A stretch of DNA of 64,000 nucleotides from Candidatus Latescibacterota bacterium (GTDB lineage Bacteria; Latescibacterota; UBA2968; UBA8231), in the NCBI GenBank assembly GCA_965221775.1, contig CBDCSU010000006.1:480001-544000 (forward strand), in the 5' to 3' direction. Shown piece by piece: positions 7,847 to 53,227 of this stretch; positions within the stretch are counted from its first letter, which is position 1, and every line of letters begins with the position of its first letter. Position numbers and translations under genes: made by a program. The notes under the pieces were generated by a model that had not been told where the DNA came from, did not search any database, and was given only the letters and a program-made list of their open reading frames with translations.

Positions 7847-10270
7847 TTGCGCTCCGTGAGAGAGAATCCAACCGGGGTCCGGGCGGTGTGCGAAGGGCGG
7901 GGGCGGCGGCGCCTCCACGGCCTCGCCCGCGGGTGCGCGGCCCTGATCTTCTGGCAGGTGCAGGGGGCCCCGTCCCTGCATGCCGACCCCCTCCCGCCGC
8001 AGGAGCACGCGGTCCGGCGTTTCGCCGCCCGGCAGATGGAGCGGCTGCAGTCCCCCGGCGCCGAGGTCGCCCGCTGGCCGAAGCTCTCCCGCTATTTCGC
8101 CGCCTATCCCCTGCCCACGGAGGAAGCCGAGGCCGGGCGCCTCCTGGGGACGGCGCGGCGCATCCTCCGGGCCTTCGCCGCGCGGCTCCACGGGGCCGCC
8201 CTGGAGCAGGCCCGGCGGGCGGGATCGTCCGCCGCCGGCGCCGACCACGTCACCATGGCCCTGGACGAGCTGCTGCCGAGCGCCGGGACGCCCTACAAGA
8301 CCCGCGTGTTCTTCCCCGAGGCCCCGCCCGACCGGCAGGTGCCGGTGGAGGTCATCGACCTCGAAGCGTTCCAGGACACCCCCATCACCTGGCGCGCCCT
8401 GGCCGATCTCACCCTGCCTCCGGACGAGGGTTCCCTGGCCGACGAGGAGGCCGTGCGCCGCTTCGCCGACGGCGTCGGCGCCTACGGGCTGCTCCTGTTC
8501 CGGCTGGGGGCGGCCAGCGCCCGCGGGGAGCACGCCCCCAACCTGGCCAGCCCGCACCTACGCAAGGCGCAGAGGGAGATCTCGCGGCGGCGGCTGGAGT
8601 CGGAGTCACCCCCTCCGGCCGCGGCTACCGGCGCCGGGGACCCGCTCACCGGGGAGACCCCCTTCACCGACGTGACCGCCGCCAGCGGCATCGACTTCCG
8701 CCACGTGAGCAGCGACTGGATCTCGCGCTTCCGGCGCTACGGGCCCCAGGCGCCCACCTTCAGCGGCGGCGGCGTCACCGCCGGCGACCTCGACGGCGAC
8801 GGCTGGCCCGACCTCGTCTACTGCGGCGGCGAGGGCTGCTCCGCCTTCGGCAACCGCGGGGACGGGAGCTTCGAGGACCTCGGCGAGGGGCAGCTGACCG
8901 TCCCCGGCGAGGCCCGCATGTCCCTGGCCGCCGACCTCGACAACGACGGCGACCCCGATCTCTTCGTCACCTACGCCCGCGACACGAACCGTCTCTTCCG
9001 CAACCGCGGCGGCGGCCGCTTCGACGACGTCACCGCCGCCTCCGGCCTCGAGCGGCCCGGCGACATCAGCGGCCCTGCCATCGCCTTCGACTACGACAAC
9101 GACGGCCGCCTCGACCTCTACGTGGGCAACTTCGGCGACTATCTCGCGGGCGCCTCGCCGTGGGTCGTCGCCGATCCCCGCAACGCCCTTCCCAACCGCC
9201 TCTACCGCAACCTCGGGGAGCTGCGCTTCGAGGACGTCACCGGCCGCGCCGGCGCCGGCGACACGGGCTGGACCCAGGCCGTCTCCCACCTCGACTACAA
9301 CCACGACGGCTACCAGGACATCTACGTGGCCAACGACTTCGGCTCCAACGAGCTGCTGGAGAACCAGGGCGACGGCACCTTCCTGGCGCGGGGGGAGGAG
9401 ACGGGCACCCGGGACCGCTTCCACGGCATGAACGTCGCCTTCGCCGATCTCAACGGCGACGACCACGCCGACATCCTGGTGAGCAACATCTGGGGCTGGT
9501 CCCCCACGACGCGGGCCCCCGGGGAGACCAACAGCCTCTTCCTCTCCGACCCGCGGGCCGACGGCGGCGTCCGCTACCGCCGCGACCTCGACTCGATCCC
9601 CGGGATGTTGCGGCGCGACACCGGCTGGGCCTGGGCGGCCCTGTTCTTCGACCTGGAGAACGACGGCGACGACGACCTCTTCCTCCTGAACGGGCTCACC
9701 GACTACAGCACGGCCCGCCAGTTCCGCCCCCATCCCTCGAAGCCCGGCGCCCTCTACCCGGTGTCGAACAGCCGCGAGGCGAACCTGCTCTTCGTCAGCG
9801 AGGGGGGGCGTCTTGAGGTCCCTCCCGGGCCCAGCGGCGCCGAGCTGGGGCGGCACAACTCCCGGGCCCTGGCCCTGCTCGACCACGACCGCGACGGCGA
9901 TCTCGACATGGCGGTGAGCACCTTCCACGGCGAGGGGCGGCTGTTCCGCAACGACGCCGCGACAGGGTCCAACCACTGGCTGCGGGTCGAGCTGGTGGGC
10001 GATCCCGCCCGGGGCGCCAGCCTCGACGCCGTCGGCGCCCGGGTCATCGCCCGTCCCGCGGGAGGCGCCCCGGTCTGGCGCGTCGTCACCGGCGGCGAGG
10101 GCTACCTGGGGATGAGCACCCTGCCCGTGGACATCGGTCTCGGCGAGGCGGAAGCCGCCGACCTGGAGATCCTGTGGCCGGGGAGGCAGCCGCAGCGCCT
10201 GGAGGGGGTCGCCGCGGACCAGGCGATCCGCGTGCGCCAGGGCGCCCCCGGGTTCGAGCGGCTCCACTGA
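7847..10270 (+). CDS. CRTAC1-like FG-GAP repeat / ASPIC-UnbV protein with an unassigned N-terminal region
   Basis: Multiple D(L/Y)DxDGxxDL repeats, NRLFRNRG motifs, C-terminal NHWLRVELVG...AVGARV...LEILWP; start uncertain (7847 or GTG 7856). Confidence 0.85.
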   Translation: MRSVRENPTGVRAVCEGRGRRRLHGLARGCAALIFWQVQGAPSLHADPLPPQEHAVRRFAARQMERLQSPGAEVARWPKLSRYFAAYPLPTEEAEAGRLLGTARRILRAFAARLHGAALEQARRAGSSAAGADHVTMALDELLPSAGTPYKTRVFFPEAPPDRQVPVEVIDLEAFQDTPITWRALADLTLPPDEGSLADEEAVRRFADGVGAYGLLLFRLGAASARGEHAPNLASPHLRKAQREISRRRLESESPPPAAATGAGDPLTGETPFTDVTAASGIDFRHVSSDWISRFRRYGPQAPTFSGGGVTAGDLDGDGWPDLVYCGGEGCSAFGNRGDGSFEDLGEGQLTVPGEARMSLAADLDNDGDPDLFVTYARDTNRLFRNRGGGRFDDVTAASGLERPGDISGPAIAFDYDNDGRLDLYVGNFGDYLAGASPWVVADPRNALPNRLYRNLGELRFEDVTGRAGAGDTGWTQAVSHLDYNHDGYQDIYVANDFGSNELLENQGDGTFLARGEETGTRDRFHGMNVAFADLNGDDHADILVSNIWGWSPTTRAPGETNSLFLSDPRADGGVRYRRDLDSIPGMLRRDTGWAWAALFFDLENDGDDDLFLLNGLTDYSTARQFRPHPSKPGALYPVSNSREANLLFVSEGGRLEVPPGPSGAELGRHNSRALALLDHDRDGDLDMAVSTFHGEGRLFRNDAATGSNHWLRVELVGDPARGASLDAVGARVIARPAGGAPVWRVVTGGEGYLGMSTLPVDIGLGEAEAADLEILWPGRQPQRLEGVAADQAIRVRQGAPGFERLH

Positions 10271-10285
10271 TCCGATGACTCTCCG

Positions 10286-13717
<3,432 letters not shown>

Positions 13718-33119: not shown

Positions 33120-33398
33120 ATGAGAACGACGGTCACACTGGATGCGGATGTCGAGCAGCGTCTCAAGGAGGCCATGCGCAGGCAGGGCAAGGGGTTCAAG
33201 GAGACCCTGAACGATGCCCTGCGCAGGGGTCTGGGTCCGTCGGGCTCGGAATCGGAGGAGCGGCCCTTCGCGGTGGAGTCGCGTCCGCTCCGCCTTCGCA
33301 CCGGGCTCGACCCTGCCCGTCTGCGCGAGCTGGACGACGATCTGGAAATCGCCGAGTTCCTGCGGAAGACCGCGCGGCTGCAGGAACGCCGGGAGTGA
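33120..33398 (+). CDS. vapB: VapB-type ribbon-helix-helix antitoxin
   Basis: MRTTVTLDADV...LNDALRRGL; 4-nt overlap with the PIN gene. Confidence 0.85.
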   Translation: MRTTVTLDADVEQRLKEAMRRQGKGFKETLNDALRRGLGPSGSESEERPFAVESRPLRLRTGLDPARLRELDDDLEIAEFLRKTARLQERRE

Positions 33399-33823
33399 TC
33401 ATCCCGGACGCCAACCTGCTGCTCTACGCCTACGACGAGGCGAGCGCGTTTCACCTGCGCGCCAAATCGTGGTGGAGCACCTGCCTTTCCGGGCCGGAGC
33501 CGGTCGGCCTGGTCGCCGTGGTTCTTTTCGCCTTCATACGAATCGGCACGAGCCCCAAGGTGTTCGAAACTCCCTTCTCCATCTCCGAAGCGGCCGAACA
33601 CGTCAAGAGATGGCTGGAGGCTCCGTCAACGGAGCTCCTGGCGGTGACTCGGGCCGATGTCGAGCAGGCCCTGGCGTGGCTGAACGAAGCCGGCTCGGGC
33701 GGCAACCTGACGACCGATGCCCAGATCGCCGCGGTCGCCAGGAGATGCCAGGCCCACGTCCACACCGCGGACACGGACTTCGCCCGCTTCCCGGGCGTTC
33801 GCTGGAAGAACCCCGTTCTCTGA
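33395..33823 (+). CDS. vapC: VapC PIN-domain ribonuclease toxin
   Basis: IIPDANLLLYA, GNLTTDAQIAA, TADTDFARFPG...NP. Confidence 0.92.
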   Translation: MIIPDANLLLYAYDEASAFHLRAKSWWSTCLSGPEPVGLVAVVLFAFIRIGTSPKVFETPFSISEAAEHVKRWLEAPSTELLAVTRADVEQALAWLNEAGSGGNLTTDAQIAAVARRCQAHVHTADTDFARFPGVRWKNPVL

Positions 33824-40675: not shown

Positions 40676-41956
40676 ATGCGACGCAGAGGTTTCCTCGTCA
40701 AGACGGCAGGGGTGCTCGGCGCCGCCTCCGTGCGCACCGCCATGGGTGAACCCTCCCCCGGTCCTGGCGCACCCGCCGAGGCGGATCCGGCCTCGGACGG
40801 GGAGGCCTTCTGGTCCAGCGTGCGCCAGCGGTTCCCCCTCACCCGGGAGCGCGTCTACCTGAACACGGCCGGGCTGGGCCCTTCGCCCCAGGCGGTGATC
40901 GACGCCGTCCACCGCAAGACGGTGGAGCTGGAGGAGATCTCGGAGACCGGCCACACACAGGAGGTATGGCAGGCGCTCAAGGAGCGCGGGGCCCGCCTCT
41001 TCGGCTGCGAGGCGGAGGAGCTCGCCTTCACCCGCAACACCACCGAGGGCGTCAACATCGTCTGCAACGGCCTTCCCCTCGGCGCCGGCGACGAGGTGAT
41101 CACCTCCACCCACGAGCACGTGGGCAATACCATCTCCTGGATCGCCCGCGCCCGCCGCGACGGGATCCGCATGCGCGTCTTCGAGCCCGCGGTTCAATCG
41201 GCGGCCGAGACCGTGGACCGCATCGCCCGGCTGATCACCCCCCGCACGCGGGCGATCTCCATCTCCCACGTGACCACCACCACGGGACAGGTCCTGCCGG
41301 TGGAGGAGATCGGCCGCCTCGCGGCGCGGCACGGCCTGTGGTACTTCATCGACGGCGCCCAGTCGGCAGGCCAGCTCGTCCTCGACGTGCGCGGCATCGG
41401 CTGCCACGCCTACGCCACCAGCGGCCACAAGTGGCTCCTCGGCCCCAAGGGCACGGGGTTGCTCTACGTTGCCCGCGACGCTCTCGACGCGATCCAGGCC
41501 CGCTGGGTGGGCGCCTGGTCCAACGAGGGCGCCTTCGACATGGCCACGGGCGAATTCGCCTTCCACCCCTCCGCGCAGCGCTACGAGTACGGCACCATGA
41601 GCACCCCCCTCTTCCACGGCCTGGGGGCGGCCATGGAGTTTCTCCTCGACCTGGGCATGGAGCGCGTCTGGCAGCGTGACCAGGCTCTCGGGCGGCGGCT
41701 GATCGCGGGTCTGCAGGAGGCCGGCGCCGAGGTCCTCTCCCCCCTCCAGCCGGGGGAGCACAGCGCCATCGTCTCCTTCCGGCTCGAGGGGATGCCCCGG
41801 CCGGAGCTGCAGCAGCGGCTGGCCCGGGAGCACCGGATCCGCTCCCGGGGGATCTACGAAGGCGGGCTGGAGGCCGTGCGCGTCTCCCCCCACGTCTTCA
41901 GCCTGGCCGACGACGTGGACCGCGTCATCGAGGCGGTGCGCCAGCTTCGCGGCTGA
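40676..41956 (+). CDS. Tat-exported class V PLP aminotransferase (cysteine desulfurase / isopenicillin N epimerase-like)
   Basis: MRRRGFL Tat motif; YLNTAG, RNTTEG, DGAQSAG, SGHKWLLGPKGTG; RBS GGAGG. Confidence 0.88.
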   Translation: MRRRGFLVKTAGVLGAASVRTAMGEPSPGPGAPAEADPASDGEAFWSSVRQRFPLTRERVYLNTAGLGPSPQAVIDAVHRKTVELEEISETGHTQEVWQALKERGARLFGCEAEELAFTRNTTEGVNIVCNGLPLGAGDEVITSTHEHVGNTISWIARARRDGIRMRVFEPAVQSAAETVDRIARLITPRTRAISISHVTTTTGQVLPVEEIGRLAARHGLWYFIDGAQSAGQLVLDVRGIGCHAYATSGHKWLLGPKGTGLLYVARDALDAIQARWVGAWSNEGAFDMATGEFAFHPSAQRYEYGTMSTPLFHGLGAAMEFLLDLGMERVWQRDQALGRRLIAGLQEAGAEVLSPLQPGEHSAIVSFRLEGMPRPELQQRLAREHRIRSRGIYEGGLEAVRVSPHVFSLADDVDRVIEAVRQLRG

Positions 41957-41965
41957 AACGCACGA

Positions 41966-41994
41966 AGGCCCCGGGGACATCTCCCCCGGGGCCT
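41966..41994. terminator. GC-rich hairpin between convergent genes
   Basis: Perfect 11-bp stem AGGCCCCGGGG/CCCCGGGGCCT, 7-nt loop; no U-tract. Confidence 0.55.
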
Positions 41995-42031
41995 CCGAGA
42001 CTGACTGGTATTGCGCCGCGCTCCGGCGGAA

Positions 42032-43078
42032 TCAGAACCCCAGCAGCAGCGACACCCGGTGCACGTTGTCGAGGATGCCGAACTGCGTGTACGCGTAGTC
42101 CACGGTGACGTCGTAGCTCGACCATGGGACGTGGACGCCCAGGCCGAAGCTGGCTCCCTCCTCGGTGCGCGGCGCGTCGAAGCCGGCGCCGGTGACCTCG
42201 TCCACCTTGCTGTCCTCCACGCCGGAGTAATTCAGCTTGTAACCCCCGCGGAGGCTCAGGTACTCCATCACCTCCACCTCGGCGGCGCTGTAGAGCAACT
42301 GCTCGCCGTCCTGGGGCTTGGTGGCGTCGGAGAGCAGGGTCACCTTCACCTGGTCCGCCTGCTCGTAGACCTCGATGGCCGCCCCCACGCTGAAGGCCAG
42401 CGGCAGAGGGGCGCCGATGTTGTAGAAGGTCAGGTCGTTGCCCAGGTTGTTGATGCGCGCCCCGAGCCGGGCGTTGCGGAAGCCCACGTGGTAGATCGCG
42501 CCGAAGTCGAGAGCCATGGCGCTCGCGCCGACGCCGTCGATCGACTGCTGCACCATCTTGCCCGTCGCTCCCAGGGCCAGCCGGTCGGTCACGTTGCGGG
42601 CCCAGGTCACCTGCAGAGCCAGGTCCGAGTAGTCGTAGGAGCCCGATCCCGTGTCGCGGAACCCGGTGTAGGTGGCGTCCAGGAAGCCCGGGACCTGGTC
42701 CCGGTCGAGGCCGCCGCCGTTGTCGATCCCGGCCAGGGAGAGGTTGATCACTCCGATCCCGAAGGTGCCCGCGTCGCCGAAGTTCCGGGTGACGCCGACG
42801 GCGTGGTGGCCGAGGTCGGCGATCCACTGGTTGTAGGAGTAGGTCACCTGGCTGCGGCCCCGCGGCAGGGCGATGCCCGCCGGGTTCCAGAACATCTGCG
42901 TGGCGTCGCCGGCCACCGACGTATAGGCCGAGCCGAGGGCCACCGCCCGGGCGCCGACGCCGATCTTGAGGAAGGCGCCGCCGGTGATGCCCGACTTGCG
43001 AACGGCCGCCTCCGACGAGTCGGCCCAGACGAGGGCGCCGAGGGCCAGCCACAACACCGCGCTCTTGTGAAGCTTCAT
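42032..43078 (-). CDS. PorV/PorQ-like (UPF0164) outer-membrane beta-barrel
   Basis: Signal peptide; FLKIGVGARAVALGSAY, FWNPAG, LSLRGGY, VDYAY, HRVSLLLGF terminal Phe. Confidence 0.88.
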   Translation of the reverse strand: MKLHKSAVLWLALGALVWADSSEAAVRKSGITGGAFLKIGVGARAVALGSAYTSVAGDATQMFWNPAGIALPRGRSQVTYSYNQWIADLGHHAVGVTRNFGDAGTFGIGVINLSLAGIDNGGGLDRDQVPGFLDATYTGFRDTGSGSYDYSDLALQVTWARNVTDRLALGATGKMVQQSIDGVGASAMALDFGAIYHVGFRNARLGARINNLGNDLTFYNIGAPLPLAFSVGAAIEVYEQADQVKVTLLSDATKPQDGEQLLYSAAEVEVMEYLSLRGGYKLNYSGVEDSKVDEVTGAGFDAPRTEEGASFGLGVHVPWSSYDVTVDYAYTQFGILDNVHRVSLLLGF

Positions 43079-43113
43079 CTTTCCGATCCTCCGTTCCGCA
43101 TTGCCCAGTGGAG

Positions 43114-45591
43114 TCACTGCAGGATGGCGAAGTGGCCGGTCTGCTTGCCGCCGGGGTACTCCGCCACGTAGATGTAGAGACCGCTGGTGACCTCGATGCC
43201 GTCCTTGGAGAACATGTCCCAGAACAGGGTGCCGTCGAACTCGTTGGTGCCGTCGAAGCGAAGGACGTCGATCACCTGCCCGGAGACGTCGAGGATGGTG
43301 ATCTCCGTCCCCGTGGGCAGGTTGATGAACAGGATCTTGTGCTGCTCACCGGTGTCGTGCAGGGCCTGGCGCTTGTAGGGGTTGGGCAGCACCCGGATCG
43401 CCAGGTTGCCCGCCACCAGGTCCCCGGCATCGGCCAGGGGCGCCTTCAGGATGAAGGGCGCGCCGATGTCCTTGAGAGAGTTCAGATCGTTGGGGTCGGG
43501 GTAGAAGGCGTTGGCGGTGGTCCACCAGTAGGTCCCCTCCCACGACCCGGAGGCCCCGTTGACGTTGTTGCGGTGGGTCTCCAGCGAGGTGTAGGGCCAG
43601 CCGTTGATCTCGCCCTGCTCGTCGTCGTAGGCGGCCACGTAGTAGTAGTAGGTGAACCCGAAGCTCACCAGGTCGCTGTCGTCGGTGAACTTGTAGTTGT
43701 AGGTGCCGCTGTCGTCGCCGTCGTTCATGTAGGAACCCAGGTCGCCGGCGGGGATGTTGGCGATCAGCCGGTAGGGGCCCCAGGCGTTGGGCTCCTGGTC
43801 GCGATAGGCGTCGGAGCTGATGTTCGGGTTGTTGGCCCGGCCGAAGGCCGCCAGCTGGGCGTCGCTGGGATTCGCCTCCGTCTGCTCGTGATAGCGGTCG
43901 AGCATGCGGATGCCGAGCTGGCGCGTGTCCACCCGCGGGAAGGGCGTGGACCGGTAGATCTTGTACCCTGCGAAGTCCGCCGCCGACTCGGCCCGGTCGT
44001 CCCACTTGACCTCGATGTTGAGGTCGGGGTCGGGACGGCTCGGAGCCACCTTGATGTCGGGCGTCGGGGGCGGCGCCGGCACCTGCCAGTTGTTCTCGTA
44101 GGCCCACTGGGCGGCCGAGCGCGCCCGTCGGACACCCTGCAGCCGGAACCCGCCGTACTCCGCCATGGTGATGTTGATCGTCTCCCCCACCTCCAGCGAG
44201 AAGGGGCCGACGCCGACGTAGTGGTCGCCGTCGAAGCCGTGGCCGATGGTGTACCCCGCGTCCCAGTCGGAGTCGCTGCCGTCGGGCAGGGCGCCGGCGT
44301 TGCCCTTCTCCCAGTTCTGGGCGAAGGTGCCGTTGTACTTCATGTCCCCGCGCGGCTGGCCCCGCTCCCCCTCGGGCTTGACGGCGGCCACGAAGCTCAG
44401 CGGGTTGCCCTCGACGATGTCGGGATGGGTGGCGTCGAAGTAGTTGGGATCGGGCCTGAGGACGAAGGCGGTGCGGTCGGAGATCCGGCCGCCGTTCTCG
44501 TAGAAGGTGCCCATGGAGAGAACGTGGTTCTCCCAGGGGTTGTGATCGTTGTTGCCGTAACCCTTGCTCACCGAGGTGTACCAGCCGCGCTCCGCCCCGG
44601 TGCCGACGGGATGGCTGTCGAAGATCGTCTTCTTGTCCGGCTGGTCGAAGCTGGAGCCATCGCCCGGAAGGGCGCCCTCCTTGACCGCCATCCACTGGGA
44701 GCCGGTGTAGATGTCGTAGTAGTAGTGGCGCCGGCGCATGGTGTTGCCCAGCTCGCGGCTGCCGTCCGGGGCCCAGGGAATGCCGTCAGGACCGGTCTCG
44801 CTCAACTGGGAAGGGGCCGGACCGGTGAAGGTGACCGGCACGTCCCACGGGTTGCCGTCGGCGTCGGGGGTGGCGTCGTAGCCGCTCACCGGACCGGTGA
44901 ACCAGCCGGCCGCGCCGCGCCTCCCCGCCTGGCTGTTGGACATGGAGTTGATCAGCTCGTTGCGCAGGTTGAGGACCAGGGCCTCGATCCTGCGCCCCGT
45001 CTGCTCGGGGTTGCCGTCGCCGTCGGGATCGAAGACGCCCGTGTTGGTCAGCTCGAGCTCGAGGACGAGGAAGTCGTTCATGTTGGCGTGGTTGAGGGAC
45101 CACTGGCGGATGCGGTACTTCACGTCCACGCCGATGTTCGTCGGCGTCGAGCCCTCGTAGATCATCTGGTGCCGGTGGCCGGGGTCCACCCAGCGGGCGC
45201 CGTCGTCCGCCGTCCCGGATCCGAGGGCCGGCGTCTGGAAGGCGTACACGTAGTCCTTGGCGCGGGGATCGGAGGAGGTGGTGAAGTTGTTGATCCCCGG
45301 ACTGTATTCGATCATCTCCAAGGCCTGCTTCCAGGGGATGTGGATGTTCTCTCCCCCGGGGTACATCTGGGTGGGCGTCGTCCACTGGCGGTCGAGGTTG
45401 CCCACGCGGAACAGGTAGTAGAGCTGGTTGGGGTCGGTCTCCACCTCGTAGTAGGTCTTGCCCACGTTGGTCGGCAGGTAGGTCTCCCACAGGTCGCCCG
45501 CCATGATGACGCCCGGGCCCTGCGCGCCTGCCGTCCCGGCGAGGAGCAACACCAGGATGCCGGCGCTCGCCGGCTTCAGGTACTTGATCAT
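43114..45591 (-). CDS. Exported protein with Ca-binding DxDGDG motif, FN3-like domain and T9SS-like CTD
   Basis: Signal peptide; DPDGDGNPE; PPPTP...W...DFAGYKIYRS...YYYYVAAYD; IRVLPNPY...FINLP...SGLYIY...GHFAILQ. Confidence 0.82.
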   Translation of the reverse strand: MIKYLKPASAGILVLLLAGTAGAQGPGVIMAGDLWETYLPTNVGKTYYEVETDPNQLYYLFRVGNLDRQWTTPTQMYPGGENIHIPWKQALEMIEYSPGINNFTTSSDPRAKDYVYAFQTPALGSGTADDGARWVDPGHRHQMIYEGSTPTNIGVDVKYRIRQWSLNHANMNDFLVLELELTNTGVFDPDGDGNPEQTGRRIEALVLNLRNELINSMSNSQAGRRGAAGWFTGPVSGYDATPDADGNPWDVPVTFTGPAPSQLSETGPDGIPWAPDGSRELGNTMRRRHYYYDIYTGSQWMAVKEGALPGDGSSFDQPDKKTIFDSHPVGTGAERGWYTSVSKGYGNNDHNPWENHVLSMGTFYENGGRISDRTAFVLRPDPNYFDATHPDIVEGNPLSFVAAVKPEGERGQPRGDMKYNGTFAQNWEKGNAGALPDGSDSDWDAGYTIGHGFDGDHYVGVGPFSLEVGETINITMAEYGGFRLQGVRRARSAAQWAYENNWQVPAPPPTPDIKVAPSRPDPDLNIEVKWDDRAESAADFAGYKIYRSTPFPRVDTRQLGIRMLDRYHEQTEANPSDAQLAAFGRANNPNISSDAYRDQEPNAWGPYRLIANIPAGDLGSYMNDGDDSGTYNYKFTDDSDLVSFGFTYYYYVAAYDDEQGEINGWPYTSLETHRNNVNGASGSWEGTYWWTTANAFYPDPNDLNSLKDIGAPFILKAPLADAGDLVAGNLAIRVLPNPYKRQALHDTGEQHKILFINLPTGTEITILDVSGQVIDVLRFDGTNEFDGTLFWDMFSKDGIEVTSGLYIYVAEYPGGKQTGHFAILQ

Positions 45592-45622
45592 CGTATTTCC
45601 TCCCATGGAGTCCCTGATCGGC

Positions 45623-48565
45623 TCAGAAGTCCAGGCTCACGCCGAGCCCGATCTGGCGCGGCGGACCGTACAGCGGGATCGACTGGCCGCTGAAGGCGCG
45701 GTTCAACTCCCCTGTCGGATCCTGCTCCTCTTCCCACAGGACCTGGCTGGGGATGGTGGAATTGTCGAAAGCCAGCACGTTCTCCCGGTCCAGCAGGTTG
45801 GTGATCTCCAGGAAGAGGCCCGCCCGGGTGCCGAGCAGCTCCAGCCCCCGGGTGAGGCGCACGTCCGTGCTCGCGTTCATCGGGCCCCGCTCCGTGGCGC
45901 GCTCGCGGGGATCCTCCGAAGTCTGGGTCAGCGCGTAGAGGAAGCCGCTCTCCAGGCTCTGGATCAGCGACAGGTCGATACCGCCGGGCAGCTGCGCGAG
46001 CAGGGACAGGCTCAACTGGTGGGCGCGGTCGAAGCCGGTGGTGAGGGAGTTGTTCCCTCCCCGCACGTTGCGCTCCACCGTGTTGAAGGTCTCCCGGTCC
46101 TCCAGGGGGATCTCCGTGTCGCCGGCGGCAAAGGCGTAGCTCGTCTTGTCGGGGTACGGCGTCAGCCGGCCGGCTCCGCCCGAGGCCTTGATGTAGCTGA
46201 AGGCGTAGTTCAGGCGCCCCGAGATCATCTTGCCCGGACGCCGGAAGAGGGAGAGCTCGATGCCGCGGGCGTCGGCGTAGCCGAAGCTCGTGGTGAAGGT
46301 ATAGGAGCCGAAGCCGGCGCCGGCGGAGGGGTCGGGGTTAATGGCGTAGCCGATGCGCCCGTAGTTCTCGATGTCGCGGTAGTAGGCGGTGATGTCGGCG
46401 AGGTAGTCGGGATGGAAGCCCCACTGCAGGCCCATCTCGTAGGCCGTGGCCTCCGGCGGATCGGCGTTCACGTCGCGCACGTTCGGCAGCGACGGATTGG
46501 CGAAGGTGCCGTACTCGTCGTAGAGCTGCGAGAACGGGGGCGGCGTGTAGAACTTGCCCCACGAGTAGTGCATCGCCGCCGTCTCGGAGATCGGGTGCGA
46601 AATGCCGAGGCGCGGCTGCCAGAACATCTTGGTATCGGCGTCGTCGCCGAGGCGCGCCTTGCGCGTGATCTGGCCGTTGGACAGCGTGTCCTGCATGGAG
46701 GGATTGAAGAAGTCGGCCAGGACCTGCGCCCCCGGGTTGAACATGTCGAGGCGCACGCCGGCGTTCACGATGACGCCCTCGTACTCCATCTTGTCCTGCA
46801 CGTAGAGGGCGGTCTCCACCGGATTGAGGGTGTACGCCGTCGTCTCGAAGGGGAAGTTCGGGTCGTAGATGACCTTGACCTGCGTGCGCTGCTGGTACTG
46901 ATCCAGGGTGTGGCGCCGGTAGAGCAGGCCGGTCTTCAACTGGTGGTGAAAGTTGTACTGGTGGGTGAGGTCGGCCTTGAGCTGAGTGACGTTGCGCTTG
47001 AGTTCCTCATAGTAGAACCCGGGCTGGCCGAAGCGGTACTGGTTGTTGGAGAAGCCCAGGGTGAAGAACCGCTCGTTCCCCGGGTCGGAAGTGAAGAAGG
47101 TGAAGTTGCCGTCGGCGTCGACGGCGCTTCCTCCCACGCCCAGGTAACGCTCGGACTCCTCGGCCGAGTCGATGCGGATGAAGTCCCCGCCCTCGTCCAG
47201 GGTGGAGACGCCGTCGCCGTTGTCGTCGGAGAACCCGAACTCGCTCGTCCGGTTGAGCTGGGAGAGCTTGACGTCGACGATGGTCCGGTCCGAAACGGTG
47301 TGGGTCAGGCCCAGGTAGCCCAGGACTCCGAGCTTCTTGTTGCCGATCGCCCCTTGCGGGTAGAACTTGAAGCGGCCGTTGAAATCGCGGTTCACCCAGC
47401 CGCCGAGTCGGCCGCCGTCGTCGACCGACACGTTGGCGGTGACCTTGAGGGCGTTGGTGGGCCGGTGGGTGGCCTTGAGGGAGAAGCGGGCACCGCGGTT
47501 CAGGGTGTTGGAGAAGTTGCCCTTGTCGTCGAGGAAGCGGCCGCTGAAGAAGAAGTTGCCCCGGCGTGTGAGGGGGCCGCCCACGGAGAGCTCGAGCTCG
47601 TGGCGCAGGGCGTCGCCGTAGCCGATCTCGTCGATGGTGCTCTCGTCGAAGCCGTAGTACTCCGCCTTCGCCTTCTCGGCATCGTCGTCGGCATTGGCGA
47701 GGGCGGCGCGCTCCTCGAGGTATTTGGAGAGATCGTTGTAGACGTCGGGACCGGCGTTCTTCGTCCCCGGGCCGGTGCGGTAGAACACGCGGGTCTCGAG
47801 TTCCTCGCCGCCCTCCCGCGAGACGACGTTGACGATGCCGGCGGTGGCCGCGTCGTACTCGGCGTTGAAGGTCCCGGAGATCACGTCCAGGCTCTGCACG
47901 GAGGAGGCGTTGACCCCGACCGAGGTGAACTCGCTGCCCACCGAGCGGTGGGTCGCCGTGTAGGGCGAGTAGACGCCGTTGCCCTCGCCGGCACGGAAGT
48001 AGCTGTCGGAGACGTCGATGCCGTCGAGCAGGACCTTGGTGTCGGCCTTGCGACCGCCGCGGATGAAGCCGCGGAAGGAACTCGGCGTGGTGTTGATCAG
48101 GTCCTGCAGGCCGGAGACCGGCATGCTGTTGTTGATCTCGCTGGGATCGATGGTCTGGCGGGTCGAGGTCAGGCTCTTCTCCACCGGGGGCCGCTCGGCG
48201 AGGACCACGACCACGGGCCCCTTGATCGCCTCGGTGGCGAGGGCGAAGTCGACCGTGGTCGTCAGGTCCAGCCGCACGGCCACCTCGGTCTTCTGAACGG
48301 TCTGATGGCCCACGTGGCCGGCCTCGACGACGTAGCGGCCGGGCGGCACGTTGAGGATGAAGTAGCGCCCCTCGTCGTCGGTGACGGTCCCCACACGGAA
48401 GCCGCCGACCTCGGTGCTCACCCGGGCCCCAATCAGGGCCTGCCCCGAATCGTCGGTGATCGTGCCCGAGATCTTGCCGTAGCTGGCCGACGCGGGCTGG
48501 GCGCCCAGCGCCAGGGCCAGCACCACGAGGGCGAGTGCGGGTCGAACCCTTTGCAGCACCTCCAT
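45623..48565 (-). CDS. TonB-dependent receptor with N-terminal carboxypeptidase-regulatory-like domain
   Basis: GKISGTITD...TDDEGRYFILNVPPG; plug IRGGR...LDGI...SGTFNAEY; QPRLGISHPI; ITNLLD; terminal SLDF; RBS GGAGG. Confidence 0.92.
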   Translation of the reverse strand: MEVLQRVRPALALVVLALALGAQPASASYGKISGTITDDSGQALIGARVSTEVGGFRVGTVTDDEGRYFILNVPPGRYVVEAGHVGHQTVQKTEVAVRLDLTTTVDFALATEAIKGPVVVVLAERPPVEKSLTSTRQTIDPSEINNSMPVSGLQDLINTTPSSFRGFIRGGRKADTKVLLDGIDVSDSYFRAGEGNGVYSPYTATHRSVGSEFTSVGVNASSVQSLDVISGTFNAEYDAATAGIVNVVSREGGEELETRVFYRTGPGTKNAGPDVYNDLSKYLEERAALANADDDAEKAKAEYYGFDESTIDEIGYGDALRHELELSVGGPLTRRGNFFFSGRFLDDKGNFSNTLNRGARFSLKATHRPTNALKVTANVSVDDGGRLGGWVNRDFNGRFKFYPQGAIGNKKLGVLGYLGLTHTVSDRTIVDVKLSQLNRTSEFGFSDDNGDGVSTLDEGGDFIRIDSAEESERYLGVGGSAVDADGNFTFFTSDPGNERFFTLGFSNNQYRFGQPGFYYEELKRNVTQLKADLTHQYNFHHQLKTGLLYRRHTLDQYQQRTQVKVIYDPNFPFETTAYTLNPVETALYVQDKMEYEGVIVNAGVRLDMFNPGAQVLADFFNPSMQDTLSNGQITRKARLGDDADTKMFWQPRLGISHPISETAAMHYSWGKFYTPPPFSQLYDEYGTFANPSLPNVRDVNADPPEATAYEMGLQWGFHPDYLADITAYYRDIENYGRIGYAINPDPSAGAGFGSYTFTTSFGYADARGIELSLFRRPGKMISGRLNYAFSYIKASGGAGRLTPYPDKTSYAFAAGDTEIPLEDRETFNTVERNVRGGNNSLTTGFDRAHQLSLSLLAQLPGGIDLSLIQSLESGFLYALTQTSEDPRERATERGPMNASTDVRLTRGLELLGTRAGLFLEITNLLDRENVLAFDNSTIPSQVLWEEEQDPTGELNRAFSGQSIPLYGPPRQIGLGVSLDF

Positions 48566-48679
48566 GGCCTCTCCTCCGGAGTGGTTCCTCAGGGCTCCGG
48601 CGCACGGTGTCCGTCGACGGTGCGACGGGTTGCCGCAGCCGTGCGGAGCCGGAACAGCGGAACTGACTGTGAATTCTGC

Positions 48680-48749
48680 GAAAGTGCGAAACTTTCAGTT
48701 TAGGGCCGCAGGGCCCGATTGCGCAACGTTTTTTTTGGCAACGTTTTCA
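48680..48749 (-). promoter_or_regulatory. TBDR operon promoter with several candidate operators
   Basis: Minus strand TTGCGC (48721-48726)-N18-TAAACT (48697-48702); palindrome GAAAGT-N5-ACTTTC (48680-48696); LacI/cre-like TGGCAACGTTTTCA (48736-48749); second GCAACGTT at 48723-48730. Confidence 0.6.
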
Positions 48750-48780
48750 CGGAGTGCCCCGGCCCGCGCCACCGGTCGGA

Positions 48781-50700
48781 CTACCAGAAGAACAGGTGGT
48801 TGCCGGTCATGCCGGTGATCCCGTCGATGAGACACCACAGGCCCCCGGTGGCGTAGTGTCCGAGGATGAGCCCCAGGAAGAAAGGCCGGGCCCGGCGGTA
48901 GAGGGTGACGCCGCCGTAGCGCAGGACCGACGCCTTCACCAGCCAGCCGATGAAGATGCTGGGCATGAGGTGGTGGGTGGTCCACATGGCGCTGATGGGA
49001 AAGGCGATGGGATGCACCGGGAACCAGAGGAACCGCTTGGAGGCCAGGGTCAGGGCCAGCTGCACCGCCCCGCCCGCGCCGGTGACGCCGAGGAACTCCC
49101 AGGTGAGGTTCGCCGGGTTGGCGAGGTGGTAGGCGGTGAAGGTGTAGGGCAGGGTGGCGGCCCTCTCTCCGAAGAACCAGAAGCTGAGGTTGAGGGCGCC
49201 GTGGCGGTAGCCGAGGGTCAGGACCGTGGCCGCGGAGGCGCCGGCGGCGCACAGCACGGCCAGCAGGACGGCGGCGGCCAGGCGGCGCCGGTGCCGGGTG
49301 ATGTACTCCTCGGCCAGCCGCAGGCCGTGGATGACGGCGGCCATCAGAGTGACGCGCATCCCACCCGCCCAGGGGAAGGTCATGCCGAGGGCGCCGAGGT
49401 TGGCGTGTCCGAGGGCGCTGGCGCCGAAGGTGCCGATGAGGGCGTCCACCGGCACCAGGGGAGCCTTGGTCACCGCCAGCCCGCCTTCGGCGACGATCCG
49501 GGTGAGTCCGAACATCACCCCCAGGGCGGTGGCGATCAGTAGCGGCGCCAGCCACCAGGCCATGCCGGCGGCGTGGAGCCAGATCCACATGACCAGCATC
49601 GATGCCCCCAGCAGGCCGACGGCCTGGCGGTACGACAGGATCTCGCCGCCGTCCTCGCCGGCGCCGGCGGCGACCTGGCGCCAGATCCGCTTCAGGTGGT
49701 GGCGGGCGACCCACAAGGAGCTGGCGGCGAGCACCGCCAGGGCCCCGAAGCCCTGGTAGGCCAGGTAGGCCGAGCCGAGGGCGATCCCCTCGACGCGCTG
49801 GGTCCCGGGGACTCCGAAGTGCAGGAGCACGGCCCGCTCGAGGGTGGTCAGCAGCCCGAGGAACCACATGCTGAAGCCGAGCTTGGTACTCAGCAGGAAA
49901 CCGAAGCCGACGACAGCGTGGCTGATCGACCAGCGCAGCTGGAACTTGCCGTCCCAGAAGTAGTAGTACTTCCAGATCGGCACCCCCTCGGGCACGATGG
50001 GGTAGTAGTTGTGCAGGGCCCGCAGGGAGTACTGCAGGAAGGGGATCAGGATGCCGATCCAGACGGCGGGATTGCGGAAGAAGGCGCTGATGACCCTGCC
50101 CCCCTCCCCCTCCTCGCCGATCATCGAGATCGGCACCTGCACGAGGGGGAAGGTGAGCCGCTCGTGCTGGATCCACTGCTTGCGCACCAGCACCATGAGC
50201 GCCGTCATCGCCGCGTACGCCGCCAGCAGCATCGGCAGCCATCCCAGCAGCGGCGCCAGCCACGCCATCCAGGGCAGGGGCGTGCCCGACGGCAGCCCCT
50301 CGTAGAACCACTTGACCGCCTGCGAGTCGGAGACCCGCATCCACTCCGGCAGGAAGGGCACGATCTCCTCGGCCCAGCCGTTCTCCGGCGTGGAGAAGTA
50401 GGTCCCCGAGGAGATGTGGGGCAGGAGCTGGCAGACGAGGCCGAGGGTCGGGATCGTGCAGGCCACGGCGGCCATGATGTAGACCGTGGCCTGCTCGGCG
50501 GCGGTGAACCGCCAGCTCCGCCGCAGCAGGCCGAGGAGGGGGTTGGCCGCCAGCAGGAACAGCAGGAAGAAGAACACCGCCCCCGGCGTACTGTAGTCGA
50601 AGTGCAGCGGCGAGCCGGAGACGATCAGGTTCTCGTAGGGAGCGGCCACCCCCAGCAGGACGGAGACCACGGCGCCGGCGAAGAGGGCGCGGAAGGTCAC
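48781..50700 (-). CDS. DUF6785/DUF6784-like polytopic membrane protein (putative transporter)
   Basis: About 640 aa, many TMs; RKQWIQHERLTFPL, LTRIVAEGG, WFPVHPIAF, LRYGG..LYRRARPFFLGLILG; start uncertain (GTG 50700 chosen). Confidence 0.75.
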   Translation of the reverse strand: MTFRALFAGAVVSVLLGVAAPYENLIVSGSPLHFDYSTPGAVFFFLLFLLAANPLLGLLRRSWRFTAAEQATVYIMAAVACTIPTLGLVCQLLPHISSGTYFSTPENGWAEEIVPFLPEWMRVSDSQAVKWFYEGLPSGTPLPWMAWLAPLLGWLPMLLAAYAAMTALMVLVRKQWIQHERLTFPLVQVPISMIGEEGEGGRVISAFFRNPAVWIGILIPFLQYSLRALHNYYPIVPEGVPIWKYYYFWDGKFQLRWSISHAVVGFGFLLSTKLGFSMWFLGLLTTLERAVLLHFGVPGTQRVEGIALGSAYLAYQGFGALAVLAASSLWVARHHLKRIWRQVAAGAGEDGGEILSYRQAVGLLGASMLVMWIWLHAAGMAWWLAPLLIATALGVMFGLTRIVAEGGLAVTKAPLVPVDALIGTFGASALGHANLGALGMTFPWAGGMRVTLMAAVIHGLRLAEEYITRHRRRLAAAVLLAVLCAAGASAATVLTLGYRHGALNLSFWFFGERAATLPYTFTAYHLANPANLTWEFLGVTGAGGAVQLALTLASKRFLWFPVHPIAFPISAMWTTHHLMPSIFIGWLVKASVLRYGGVTLYRRARPFFLGLILGHYATGGLWCLIDGITGMTGNHLFFW

Positions 50701-50977
50701 CGCGCCCTGGCGCGAGGTGGATCGGGCCGGGATGGGATTGGGTCCGGGGATCGGTTGCCAGGTCCGCGAGAAGGAGGAGGGGGTCGCGACTAAGGTGGGG
50801 GGCGGCCAGCGGCCTCGACAAGCCCGGCCCCGGCCCGCCATGGGGTGCTCGAACCCACGGACGGCTCGCCTTCCGCATCCCTTGCGCCTCGACGAGGGGC
50901 CGGACCATCTTCGCGGTTCAGCGAGCCCCTCGCACCGGGCCACGCGCCCCCTTCCCCTTCGCCGATACGAGACGAGC

Positions 50978-53227
50978 ATGACGCCGACTTCGCGCCAGGC
51001 CTACGTCGAGCGCCTGCGCCTCTGGGTGCCCGGCGCCCGGAGAGAGGCCGAGGGCCTCCTGGACAGCTGGCTGGCCGACCTCGCCCCGGAGCCGCTCTCA
51101 GGCCTCCAGCAACCGCCTGCGCTGCCCATCCACCTGGCCCTGGCCGAGGGTTTCCTGGCCCGCGAGGACGGCGACCAGGCCCTGGCGGATGCGGCGGCCC
51201 GGCGGCTGGCCGGGTACGGCCGCTTCGCCGAGGCCTATCCGCGCCACCTGATACCCGATCGGCCCGAGTTCGCCGGCGGCCTGCCGGCGCAGCCCAACTT
51301 CTTCCACCTGTCGACGATGGCCGAGGCCTACCTGGGCATCCGCGAGAGCGCCGCGGTCACCGACGATCAGCACCGGGCCATCCGCGGGATCCTCGCCGAG
51401 AGCTGCGACCTCATCTTCTCCTTCCCCGAGTGGGGGGCCCACAACCGCGCCGCCATCCGCGCCTGGGGGCTGCTCGCCGCCGCCCGGGCCTGTGACGGCG
51501 ACCGCCGCGCCCCGCGCTGGGAACGGATGGCGCGCGAGCTGATGGCCGACAGCCTCGAGGGCTGGACGATCGAGGACGCCATGCACTACCACTCCATGTG
51601 GACCCAGGCGATCCTCGGCTACGTCGATCTCGCCGGCGGGGAAGCGGCCTTCTTCCGCCAGCCCACCAGCCGCTTCTACTTCGAGTACTACCTCAACCTG
51701 CTGTGCCCCATCGGCGGCGTCGCCGACTTCGGGGATTCCTGGTGGGGATCCAACCTGCCGAAGTACCTGCCCATCTTCGAGCGCGGCGCCCGCGAGTACG
51801 GCGACGGCTGCCTGCGCTGGGCCGCCGGCGAGGTCTTCGGGCGCCTGATGGAACGCCACGGCCCCGGTCCCTTCGGCGACCCCGTGATCTGGGTGCAGGC
51901 GGCCAACTGGGTCGACGAGTCCGCCGAGCCCCGGACGCCCACCTGGGGGGGCCGCGAGGTGCTGGACGAGCTGGCGGGCAAGAAGGTCGTCTTCCGCAGC
52001 GGCTGGTCGCGGCAGGACACCTTCCTGCTGCTCAACTACAAGCCGGATACCGACTACGGCCGCACCCAGCGGGACTACCTCGAGCACACGATCCCGGTGG
52101 AGGCGGAGAAGGCCCATCACGGGCACGCCGACGAGAACAGCATCTCCACCCTCACCAGCCGCGGCGCCCTGCTGCTCCACGACGGCGGCTACCGCGAGCA
52201 GCTGCCGAACGGCCAATACCGCGCCGACCTCTACCACAACCGCGTCGTCGCGCGCAACGAGCTGATGCGCGAGGGCGAGTCGCTCTACGACTTCCTCCAC
52301 AACGACGGGCGCTACCGCCCGGTGGAGACGAGCCGCATCGACTACCGGCGGTTCTCGCGGGTGGAGTTCTCGCGCACCCGCCTCGTCGACCGCGGCGCCG
52401 GGTACCTGCACGACCGCGTCGTCGCCTGGCTCCTCGACGAGGAGATGTTCCTCGTCATCGACGGAGTCCAGGCCCTGCGGGACGACGTCTTCACCTTCTC
52501 CAACCTCTACCACACCCAGAGGGTGCTCGACGAGGGGGAAGGCTGGTTCGACACCGCCGTCGACTCGGTGCGCACCGAGCCGGGAGGGGAGGTCTACGCG
52601 GCGCCGGAGAACGCCGCCGCCCTGGCCGTGATCTGTCCGCCGCGGCCGTGGTTCTGGCAGGGGCAGGAGCCGGTCCGCCGCCACTGGCAGGAGGAGATCC
52701 TCCTCCACCAGACGACCTCGGGACGGCTGGCGGCCGGCAAGTGGGTCGTGTTCTACTCGGCCCTTGCGCCCCACGACCGCGGCGAGGACCCGGCCGCCAT
52801 CGCCGCCCGCATCCGCGTGGCCGACGTCGACCGCTCATCCGCCGCCGGCCTCGTGGTCGACTCCGACCGCGGCGAGACGCTCGTGGGCGTGAAATTCGAC
52901 CGCGAGGAGGAGCTGCTCATGGAGGACGTCCGCCCGCGCTACACCTGGGACTCCGGCCGCACCCGCTACGGCTGGGTCGAGACCGACGCCCGCTTCGTGT
53001 GGTCCCGGCGCCGGGAGCGGTCGGTCTCCTACGCCTGCACCGAGGCGATGCGCCTCGACTGCGGCGGCACCACCTTGCTGGAGGCCCCCTCGTACCAGTT
53101 CACCCTGCAGTACGCCGGCCCCAAGGTCAGGGACAGCCCCTCCAAGTGGCGGGCCTGGGAGGAGGAGGATGTGGCGCTTCCCGCAAGCCGTTACCAGTCG
53201 ACCACCGACCCGTCGTCGGCGTCGTAA
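50978..53227 (+). CDS. Heparinase II/III-like protein (helical N-domain plus beta-sandwich), no signal peptide
   Basis: HN, ED..HY, ADFGDS, VFRSGW, HGHADENS, LLHDGGY, YHN; 37-nt convergent overlap with dgoD. Confidence 0.65.
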   Translation: MTPTSRQAYVERLRLWVPGARREAEGLLDSWLADLAPEPLSGLQQPPALPIHLALAEGFLAREDGDQALADAAARRLAGYGRFAEAYPRHLIPDRPEFAGGLPAQPNFFHLSTMAEAYLGIRESAAVTDDQHRAIRGILAESCDLIFSFPEWGAHNRAAIRAWGLLAAARACDGDRRAPRWERMARELMADSLEGWTIEDAMHYHSMWTQAILGYVDLAGGEAAFFRQPTSRFYFEYYLNLLCPIGGVADFGDSWWGSNLPKYLPIFERGAREYGDGCLRWAAGEVFGRLMERHGPGPFGDPVIWVQAANWVDESAEPRTPTWGGREVLDELAGKKVVFRSGWSRQDTFLLLNYKPDTDYGRTQRDYLEHTIPVEAEKAHHGHADENSISTLTSRGALLLHDGGYREQLPNGQYRADLYHNRVVARNELMREGESLYDFLHNDGRYRPVETSRIDYRRFSRVEFSRTRLVDRGAGYLHDRVVAWLLDEEMFLVIDGVQALRDDVFTFSNLYHTQRVLDEGEGWFDTAVDSVRTEPGGEVYAAPENAAALAVICPPRPWFWQGQEPVRRHWQEEILLHQTTSGRLAAGKWVVFYSALAPHDRGEDPAAIAARIRVADVDRSSAAGLVVDSDRGETLVGVKFDREEELLMEDVRPRYTWDSGRTRYGWVETDARFVWSRRRERSVSYACTEAMRLDCGGTTLLEAPSYQFTLQYAGPKVRDSPSKWRAWEEEDVALPASRYQSTTDPSSAS

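Follow-up and report, generated by a model that had tools for sequence, protein, structure and literature searches.

TonB-dependent glycan import is understood mainly through the SusC/SusD systems of Bacteroidota, in which the surface partners of the transporters are lipoproteins. In Proteobacteria, clusters of the TbpB-TbpA type combine Slam, a surface lipoprotein and a TonB receptor, and a dedicated small barrel puts the capture lipoprotein on the cell surface. Here, we analyzed a 64,000-nt stretch of DNA (the window) from a Candidatus Latescibacterota bacterium (assembly GCA_965221775.1, contig CBDCSU010000006.1, positions 480,001 to 544,000), in which three adjacent genes encode a TonB-dependent transporter (the receptor), an 825-aa protein (the middle protein) with a type IX secretion system (T9SS) C-terminal domain (CTD, the tail), and a small PorV/PorQ-family barrel (the private barrel). 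An earlier reading of the DNA without database searches (the sequence-only reading) had proposed that this triad is an uptake system independent of SusD. We found that its parts are all of known kinds and that their combination is new. No description of a private PorV/PorQ-like barrel encoded beside a TonB receptor and a T9SS protein was found in full-text searches, which left most subscription journals uncovered.

Several described systems share features with the triad. The Slam clusters likewise encode a receptor, a capture protein and a dedicated small barrel together, a likeness of gene content, but their barrel is of another family, their cargo is a lipoprotein and they have no T9SS. PorP/SprF-like barrels and their partners with type B CTDs (PG1035, SprB) are encoded adjacently. 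PMC9143113 proposes that such a cargo-specific barrel anchors its cargo on the cell surface, but that barrel family is different, the tail is of type B and there is no transporter. In BamG-BamH of the Bacteroidota barrel assembly machine (BAM), a 14-stranded FadL-like barrel holds a surface protein by extracellular loops inside a larger outer-membrane assembly, according to PMC12578637; unlike the triad, this pair belongs to an assembly machine and has neither a T9SS tail nor a transporter.

In Porphyromonas gingivalis, tails are retained on cognate barrels, that of PorZ on PorQ and that of PorU on PorV, as described in PMC5562754 and PMC10202324, and the latter also suggests that the tail is shielded from cleavage by cognate PorV-like barrels. 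The triad resembles these pairs in having a PorV/PorQ-family barrel with a tail that is presumably not removed. However, PorQ-PorZ and PorV-PorU, as sub-complexes of the T9SS attachment complex, belong to the secretion machinery itself, and no TonB-dependent transporter is encoded beside them. The tail protein and barrel of the triad are instead a cargo-specific module, which occurs twice in this genome and at least ten times in one relative.

Three proteins and a modelled tail-barrel pair

The three genes lie on the (-) strand and are tightly spaced, as the sequence-only reading had stated, with gaps of 31 and 35 nt for the chosen starts. The gaps are identical in the near-identical loci L026-L028, and the closest public loci are 98% identical to the window locus. 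All three genes have a G+C content at third codon positions of 0.94-0.95, a strong codon-position bias in a window of ~70% G+C. All three products carry signal peptides without a lipobox cysteine, and F is the C-terminal residue of both barrels.

The identification of the first gene as a TonB-dependent receptor was borne out by its fold. Its AlphaFold2 model (predicted local distance difference test, pLDDT, 75.6; predicted template modelling score, pTM, 0.73) matched FusA (E 2.6e-27) and SusC (8aa4, E 1.4e-23) in Foldseek, as well as YddB, PqqU, FoxA and BtuB, and the matches span ~900 columns of solved TonB-dependent transporters. The modelled structure is that of a genuine TonB-dependent transporter, with a plug inside a 22-strand barrel. 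At the sequence level, SusC/TonB matches were sub-threshold. Pfam detected CarboxypepD_reg (61.7 bits) and neither Plug nor TonB_dep_Rec_b-barrel; among 18 aligned orthologues these three families were detected in 18/18, 6/18 and 4/18, respectively. A sequence search of the PDB gave no match for the receptor, and in a profile search only its N-terminal extension and a short piece of the plug were matched. The strand GPVVVVLAERP that follows this extension is kept as IxGExVTVVAERP in the 18 orthologues, and it is a putative TonB box with a likeness to those of the SusC type.

The middle protein is a non-lipoprotein, as the sequence-only reading had it, and a plausible lipobox occurs in only ~2 of its 112 full-length homologues. 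No Pfam family covers it. A total of 156 homologues were found at E <= 1e-3, mostly 820-850 aa long and from Latescibacterota, KSB1 and Gemmatimonadetes records, and none bears a name other than 'T9SS type A sorting domain-containing'. The protein is present in 58 of 168 genomes of the phylum and in 9/9 of the genus. The calcium-binding-type motif noted earlier stands as DPDGDG at residues 188-193, and a strict motif of this type is found in 49/112 full-length homologues. The FN3-like domain noted with it is a weak likeness only (neogenin FN3, E 0.38; NCAM FN3, Foldseek E 2e-4).

The AlphaFold2 model of the middle protein had a pLDDT of 85.9 and a pTM of 0.87. In an exhaustive VIA-align search, residues about 20-690 resembled a galactose-mutarotase-like supersandwich, the fold of the sugar-binding N-domains of dextran dextrinase (9ju0, Z 15.9, rmsd 3.6, 261 aligned residues) and of enzymes of the families GH65, GH15, GH94 and GH116. 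The catalytic (alpha/alpha)6 domain of these enzymes had no counterpart in the middle protein in this comparison. An Atlas search with the N-terminal part returned unnamed clusters only.

These features place the pair of receptor and middle protein near the SusC/SusD (RagA/RagB) pairs and the utilisomes of Bacteroidota and also set it apart. Like SusC/SusD, the triad has a TonB barrel with a carboxypeptidase-regulatory-like extension beside a surface partner of carbohydrate-binding type, near sugar-metabolism genes, and SusC chains are among the fold matches of the receptor. Unlike SusC/SusD, the partner is a non-lipoprotein that would be delivered by the T9SS and comes with a candidate anchoring barrel of its own. 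The receptor scored 49.7 bits against the cut-off of 368.25 of the SusC/RagA model TIGR04056, over its N-terminal third only, and lies outside SusC/RagA by this NCBIfam threshold. No SusD-like lipoprotein is encoded at the locus, in agreement with the sequence-only reading, and PF07980 (SusD_RagB), the sole SusD model used, had no match in the genome, which is 96.8% complete.

The T9SS-like CTD reported for the middle protein was weak by sequence and clear by fold. The type A tail model TIGR04183 gave 18.2 and 21.2 bits in two scans, below its cut-off of 23, and a profile of the middle protein matched the PorU CTD with an E value of 0.0089. The best structural match of the tail (residues 723-825) was the retained tail of PorZ (5m11; Z 10.6, rmsd 2.8, 88 aligned residues, 24% identity; VIA-align), a likeness to the PorQ-PorZ pair. 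In an alignment of 30 sequences, the tail was the best-conserved region of the protein, with a mean identity over 435 pairs of 0.61, compared to 0.44 for the N-domain and 0.43 for the middle segment. The type A model has 75 matches in the genome, and the tails of this triad and of a second triad described below (21.2 and 21.9 bits) stand at the bottom of the list, beside the retained tail of PorU itself (21.9 bits). The tail is a special subtype. It is presumably retained on the mature protein, the indirect sign of which is that no other region is as well conserved. Elsewhere in the window, at about 3550-3777 (G000:C6:483550-483777), a long (+) frame ends with a T9SS tail of the usual type A (33.6 bits), one of the ~75 such matches in the genome.

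The third gene encodes a PorV-like barrel, as had been read. It matched the PorV/PorQ family model NF033709 over positions 2-325 of 326 with 165.6 bits (cut-off 90), and its sequence assigns it to this family, with a barrel predicted to be of the 14-strand type. It missed both equivalog cut-offs, a difference from the P. gingivalis pairs, with 77.8 of 220 bits for PorQ (NF033711) and 42.4 of 250 for PorV (NF033710); the PorQ score is the higher one, a further likeness to PorQ-PorZ.

The machinery for T9SS export is present in the genome, sprA and porU included (SprA_N, 117 bits; PorU, 579 bits). The PorU gene lies on another contig beside a canonical PorV (244 bits with the family model, 152.8 with the PorV model), and an M6-like T9SS protein is also encoded in that neighbourhood. 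The window barrel is a private paralogue distinct from this canonical PorV, as the sequence-only reading had called it. PorV is also not single-copy, the state that had been named as speaking against that reading: the genome has 14 PorV-family matches, of which five are over the cut-off. In a phylogenetic tree, orthologues from five further loci, which come from other phyla, grouped with the window barrel in one clade (support 100/99) apart from the other paralogues of the genome, whose relations to one another formed a star. By phmmer, the nearest paralogue of the window barrel in the genome is a solitary PorQ-like gene and not the barrel of the second triad.

Other PorV-family genes of the genome were recorded on the way. 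Two near-identical ones (G000:C5:288847-289833 and G000:C4:251373-252305; both 79.2 bits, branches 0.015 and 0.022) have different neighbourhoods, a TolQ/TPR cluster and a sugar oxidoreductase set, and could reflect a recent duplication or contamination of the bin (7.75%). At G000:C6:2005469-2009225 (L018), a 629-aa F510_1955-type glycosylhydrolase-like protein with an FlgD/CTD-like end is followed by two tandem PorV-family barrels, beside which no TonB receptor was found. At G000:C4:712399-717680 (L024), the gene for a 533-aa protein with a weakly PorV-like N-terminus directly precedes that for a 1227-aa protein whose tail is PorZ-like, possibly another cargo-barrel pair without a receptor.

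With alignments of the private barrel (residues 24-348) and of the tail (residues 700-825) as input, their complex was modelled with a score of 0.88 in three runs, while the best of three controls scored 0.02, in line with the predicted placement of the CTD on PorV. The runs agreed in at least 76% of contacts, with a partner pLDDT of at least 77; the mark used for such models is reached by 116 of 157 solved complexes and by 2 of 215 mismatched pairs. The modelling supports binding of the tail to the private barrel.

Recurrence of the triad and its tail subtype

To compare the arrangement among genomes, we used a pattern-plus-tblastn scan with one genome per species, which yielded 58 distinct related loci titled Latescibacterota, KSB1/Zhuqueibacter, Gemmatimonadota and others. 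Wherever more than 1 kb of downstream DNA was available, a PorV-like gene lay 3' of the middle gene (57/57 loci). The receptor gene lay 5' of it in 53 of the 58 loci, including 51/51 of those with more than 2.5 kb upstream. The median gaps were 13 and 22 nt, some large values being an artefact of crude start picking. This arrangement is far beyond chance. In a sister clade, a fourth gene 3' of the barrel was considered and rejected as part of the window unit; it encodes a separate polytopic membrane protein with a homologue elsewhere in the genome.

The count of triads, to which the sequence-only reading had pointed, rose to two in the same genome. A second, unrelated triad of receptor, CTD protein and PorV-like barrel is found on another contig (G000:C4:201894-209291; L015:5894-13291). 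Its 1029-aa receptor has Plug and TonB barrel matches over the cut-offs and is the best paralogue of the window receptor (phmmer, 8.4e-45). A 1082-aa non-lipoprotein is encoded 19 nt downstream, and 11 nt after that gene follows a PorV-family barrel (153.9 bits). The two middle proteins have only the tail in common (hhalign probability 96%, 30% identity). The second triad is followed by a gene for another CarboxypepD_reg barrel (OMP_b-brl_4, 261 bits), as well as one for a nucleoside transporter (NupC).

Proteins that share the tail are numerous. A profile of the whole middle protein, searched against 1.84 billion representatives, gave 5020 matches at E <= 0.001, of which 1650 reached 1e-10 and 79 reached 1e-30. 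Among the best 150 of the 5020, which were re-scored locally, 25 were full-length relatives, 46 were short fragments and 66 belonged to other families, being long proteins of 524-1533 aa with the same C-terminal tail (median 68 bits); the FN3-like segment is also common to 62 of these 66.

A profile of the tail only was then run on five other genomes (those of L035, L078, L071, L031 and L037), where it had 170 matches at E <= 1e-6, 150 of them listed. We inspected 40 loci of 9.5 kb each with receptor, barrel and tail profiles, namely the 20 best non-orthologues and 20 chosen by hand at 34-61 bits, a sample that is not random. All three genes were present in 33/40 loci: receptor, tail protein and barrel followed in this order on one strand in 31/40, and the barrel was in the middle in 2/40. 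Five loci had the receptor and tail protein only (one of them at a contig end), and the arrangement was unclear in two. All nine loci from one complete Latescibacterota chromosome were triads (9/9).

The genome of the window served as a control. Here, 44 open reading frames (ORFs) had a C-terminal match to the tail profile, and a receptor and a barrel were encoded within 5 kb only for the two that scored highest; one tail ORF at 39 bits and 41 lower ones were without both neighbours. Together, these results indicated that the tail subtype marks a receptor/barrel module. In a separate observation, a metagenome-assembled genome (MAG) labelled Bacteroidota encodes at least four tandem special-tail proteins of ~1200 aa (G169:C3:87435-103682, L098 and around), and the 9.5 kb around L098 contained two special-tail proteins and neither a receptor nor a barrel.

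Gene neighbourhood and transcripts

The features of the locus and its nearest neighbours are collected in Table 1. The triad ends at a GC-rich hairpin, as the sequence-only reading had noted, which lies between the barrel gene and a convergent class-V aminotransferase gene. Its minimum free energy is -45.3 kcal/mol (z -3.0; 1 of 200 shuffles equally good). The hairpin was missed by a consensus terminator scan (2 sites called vs 3.3 expected) and is a probable terminator.

Table 1 Features of the triad locus (window coordinates; residues refer to the respective protein)
Feature	Residues	Position	Strand	Basis or remark
TonB-dependent transporter (receptor), 980 aa		45623..48565	(-)	ORF
Receptor, signal peptide	about 1-27
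Receptor, carboxypeptidase-regulatory-like N-terminal extension	32-109	48239-48472	(-)
Receptor, TonB-box-like GPVVVVLAERP	116-126	48188-48220	(-)
Receptor, plug and barrel	up to the C-terminal F
Middle protein, 825 aa		43114..45591	(-)	ORF; start at MIKYLK, longest ORF 830 aa
Middle protein, signal peptide	1-24
Middle protein, supersandwich N-domain	about 25-505	44077-45519	(-)
Middle protein, FN3-like plus beta segment	about 506-727	43411-44076	(-)
Middle protein, T9SS C-terminal domain, special subtype	728-825	43117-43410	(-)
Private PorV/PorQ-family barrel, 348 aa		42032..43078	(-)	ORF; start at MKLHK, longest ORF 361 aa
GC-rich hairpin		41963..41997	(-)	folding vs shuffles; 15-bp perfect stem, no T-run
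Intergenic stretch upstream of the receptor gene		48566..48780	(-)
DUF6785/DUF6784 polytopic membrane protein		48781..50979	(-)	Pfam 390.1 and 98.9 bits; start uncertain
836-aa protein		50717..53227	(+)	Atlas named clusters Hepar_II_III_C/DUF4962, score 0.96; start uncertain

The DUF6785/DUF6784 protein has at least seven hydrophobic segments. Of the 58 related loci, 31 encode it, in most cases on the strand of the triad and directly upstream. In one large clade, DUF6785 is followed by a GFO/IDH/MocA oxidoreductase and then by the receptor, the middle protein and the barrel. No paper mentioning DUF6785 or DUF6784 was found in our literature searches. We regard the protein as a candidate inner-membrane permease of the pathway.

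The 836-aa protein had no Pfam match and no sequence match in the PDB. Its ten best named Atlas matches were all heparinase II/III or DUF4962 clusters (10/10), and its language-model look-alikes include ulvan- or alginate-lyase-type clusters. A homologue lies beside the triad in 11/58 loci (seven when near-identical loci are left out), KSB1-type loci included. Further upstream, within 10 kb, are genes for an enolase-superfamily dehydratase (MR_MLE), a GFO/IDH/MocA oxidoreductase and a GH123_N-like protein. As leads only, these neighbours fit polysaccharide use, perhaps of a uronate-containing polymer. A polysaccharide utilisation locus would combine glycan-degrading enzymes with a regulator; the enzyme-like neighbours within 10 kb are only partly conserved, and no regulator was identified among them.

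Ten public runs labelled as RNA contain part of the stretch, and in four of them, from three studies of marine and sponge metagenomes, contigs cover all three triad genes. The receptor/middle junction was bridged by X2 record 13, X5 record 21 and X6 record 30, and the middle/barrel junction by X2 record 10, X5 record 18 and X6 record 27. These contigs are compatible with co-transcription of the triad. Beyond about 41899-48676, contigs of runs X1 and X2 gave the flanks little or no cover, which was not used to define a transcript. Two RNA-library contigs from one study end at 48673 and 48676, ~110 nt 5' of the receptor start and just downstream of GAAAGTTTCGCACTTTCG, and these positions may be a transcript 5' end.

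Two further features lie elsewhere in the window. At 33120-33823 (+), a small ORF is followed by an overlapping PIN-domain gene, likely a toxin-antitoxin pair. At 7847-13717 (+), two large tandem FG-GAP/ASPIC-UnbV repeat proteins are encoded, the second with TPR repeats.

Proposed function and its alternatives

We favour, with moderate confidence, the reading that the triad is one outer-membrane nutrient-capture and import unit, which probably does the job of SusC/SusD importers without a lipoprotein, the middle protein standing in for SusD or for the glycan-binding surface lipoproteins that serve SusC. The middle protein would be exported by Sec and then by the T9SS, two steps that follow established family knowledge. 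Its specialised tail would be kept and would dock permanently on the private barrel, like PorZ on PorQ and PorU on PorV, a step suggested by the conservation of the tail, the genomic pairing and the complex model. Docking would keep the N-domain, of carbohydrate-module type, on the cell surface, where the supersandwich may capture a glycan or oligosaccharide. The adjacent TonB-dependent transporter may then import the ligand in a TonB-driven manner, with the DUF6785 membrane protein as a candidate for the inner-membrane step. The sequence-only reading had a private PorV tether a secreted capture or lid protein to its receptor. Tethering of the tail to the private barrel (0.88 vs 0.02) and the carbohydrate-module-type fold speak for the first part of that proposal; the retained tail, contact with the receptor or capping of it, import and the substrate are inferred.

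Several observations weigh against this reading. On the side of transcription, the sequence-only reading had placed the triad behind one promoter, and the promoter scan found no sigma-70-like site, so a single promoter for the triad stays an assumption. The RNA-library contigs cannot prove a single transcript, and RNA libraries may contain DNA. As for export, GldK-like matches in the genome were all under the cut-off, and the GldM model had no match, an uninformative result because its control likewise had none. The fold of the middle protein gave weak matches only in Foldseek (TM about 0.2), and the supersandwich is not limited to non-catalytic modules but is shared by enzymes and even by YidC. 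PorV complexes with cargo tails are already solved; therefore, the score of the complex model, whose three controls did not include the canonical PorV, shows likeness to a known binding mode and not specificity. The triad was incomplete or unclear in 7 of the 40 inspected tail loci. Between the sugar-metabolism neighbours and the triad lies an opposite-strand gene, and these neighbours are kept in part of the loci only. In addition, 17 of the 19 TonB-dependent-receptor-like ORFs and 22 of the 24 CarboxypepD_reg matches over the cut-off in the own genome are without such partners. As most TonB-type barrels lack a partner (17/19), the triad is a special class and not the general mode of this organism.

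An alternative that we judge unlikely is that the private barrel is a dedicated secretion helper, which does no more than carry this one cargo away from the T9SS translocon. PorU would then cut the tail, and the middle protein, an enzyme or a binding protein, would be set free or linked to lipopolysaccharide. The receptor would take up its products, and no stable three-part complex would form. PorU is indeed present, and supersandwich folds also occur in polysaccharide lyases and epimerases, which makes catalysis possible. The role described for PorV is likewise that of a shuttle for cargo with cleaved tails, according to PMC5562754. However, a disposable signal is not expected to be the best-conserved part of a protein, nor to be tied as a subtype one-to-one to a barrel gene of its own, and ~70 other tail-bearing proteins of the genome manage without a private barrel.

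It is still less probable, and in our view improbable, that the three proteins form something other than an importer, such as a surface structure or adhesin, or that the TonB-type barrel serves export. A TonB-type barrel reportedly serves export in the case of Oar and PopC in Myxococcus. The CarboxypepD_reg N-domain of the receptor is the same as in Oar-type barrels, and its best fold matches include FusA and YddB, which import proteins. Against this, the middle protein has a complete T9SS route of its own, the plug and the TonB-box-like strand of the receptor are typical of importers, and permease-like and sugar-metabolism genes recur beside the unit. That the small barrel lets a hydrophobic or amphipathic compound pass as a FadL-type channel, unrelated to the tail, is very improbable: PorV is called a FadL homologue in PMC12578637, but the barrel scores over the PorV/PorQ family cut-off, the tail was modelled on it with high confidence while three controls failed, and its gene travels with the tail subtype.

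If the triad is a capture and import unit, the survey of the tail subtype extends its meaning. It may be, in a judgement that we consider evenly balanced, that the Fibrobacterota-Chlorobiota-Bacteroidota (FCB) phyla hold a large undescribed class of importers, in which a TonB transporter works with a T9SS partner fixed by its retained tail on its own PorQ/PorV-like barrel. The tail subtype would be the sequence marker of this class, the N-domains would vary with the substrate, and the class would be a lipoprotein-free alternative to SusCD. Several phyla, including Latescibacterota, KSB1, Gemmatimonadota-labelled lineages and some Bacteroidota-labelled MAGs, would then solve glycan import with the T9SS and a private anchoring barrel. 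The roles of the T9SS and of PorV/PorQ-type barrels would widen from secretion machinery to permanent parts of importers, and the tail subtype would be a simple sequence marker by which giant 'hypothetical' surface proteins, hundreds of them in metagenomes, could be annotated together with their receptors. It would also hint at the route of polymer uptake in abundant, uncultured bacteria from the sea and from sponges.

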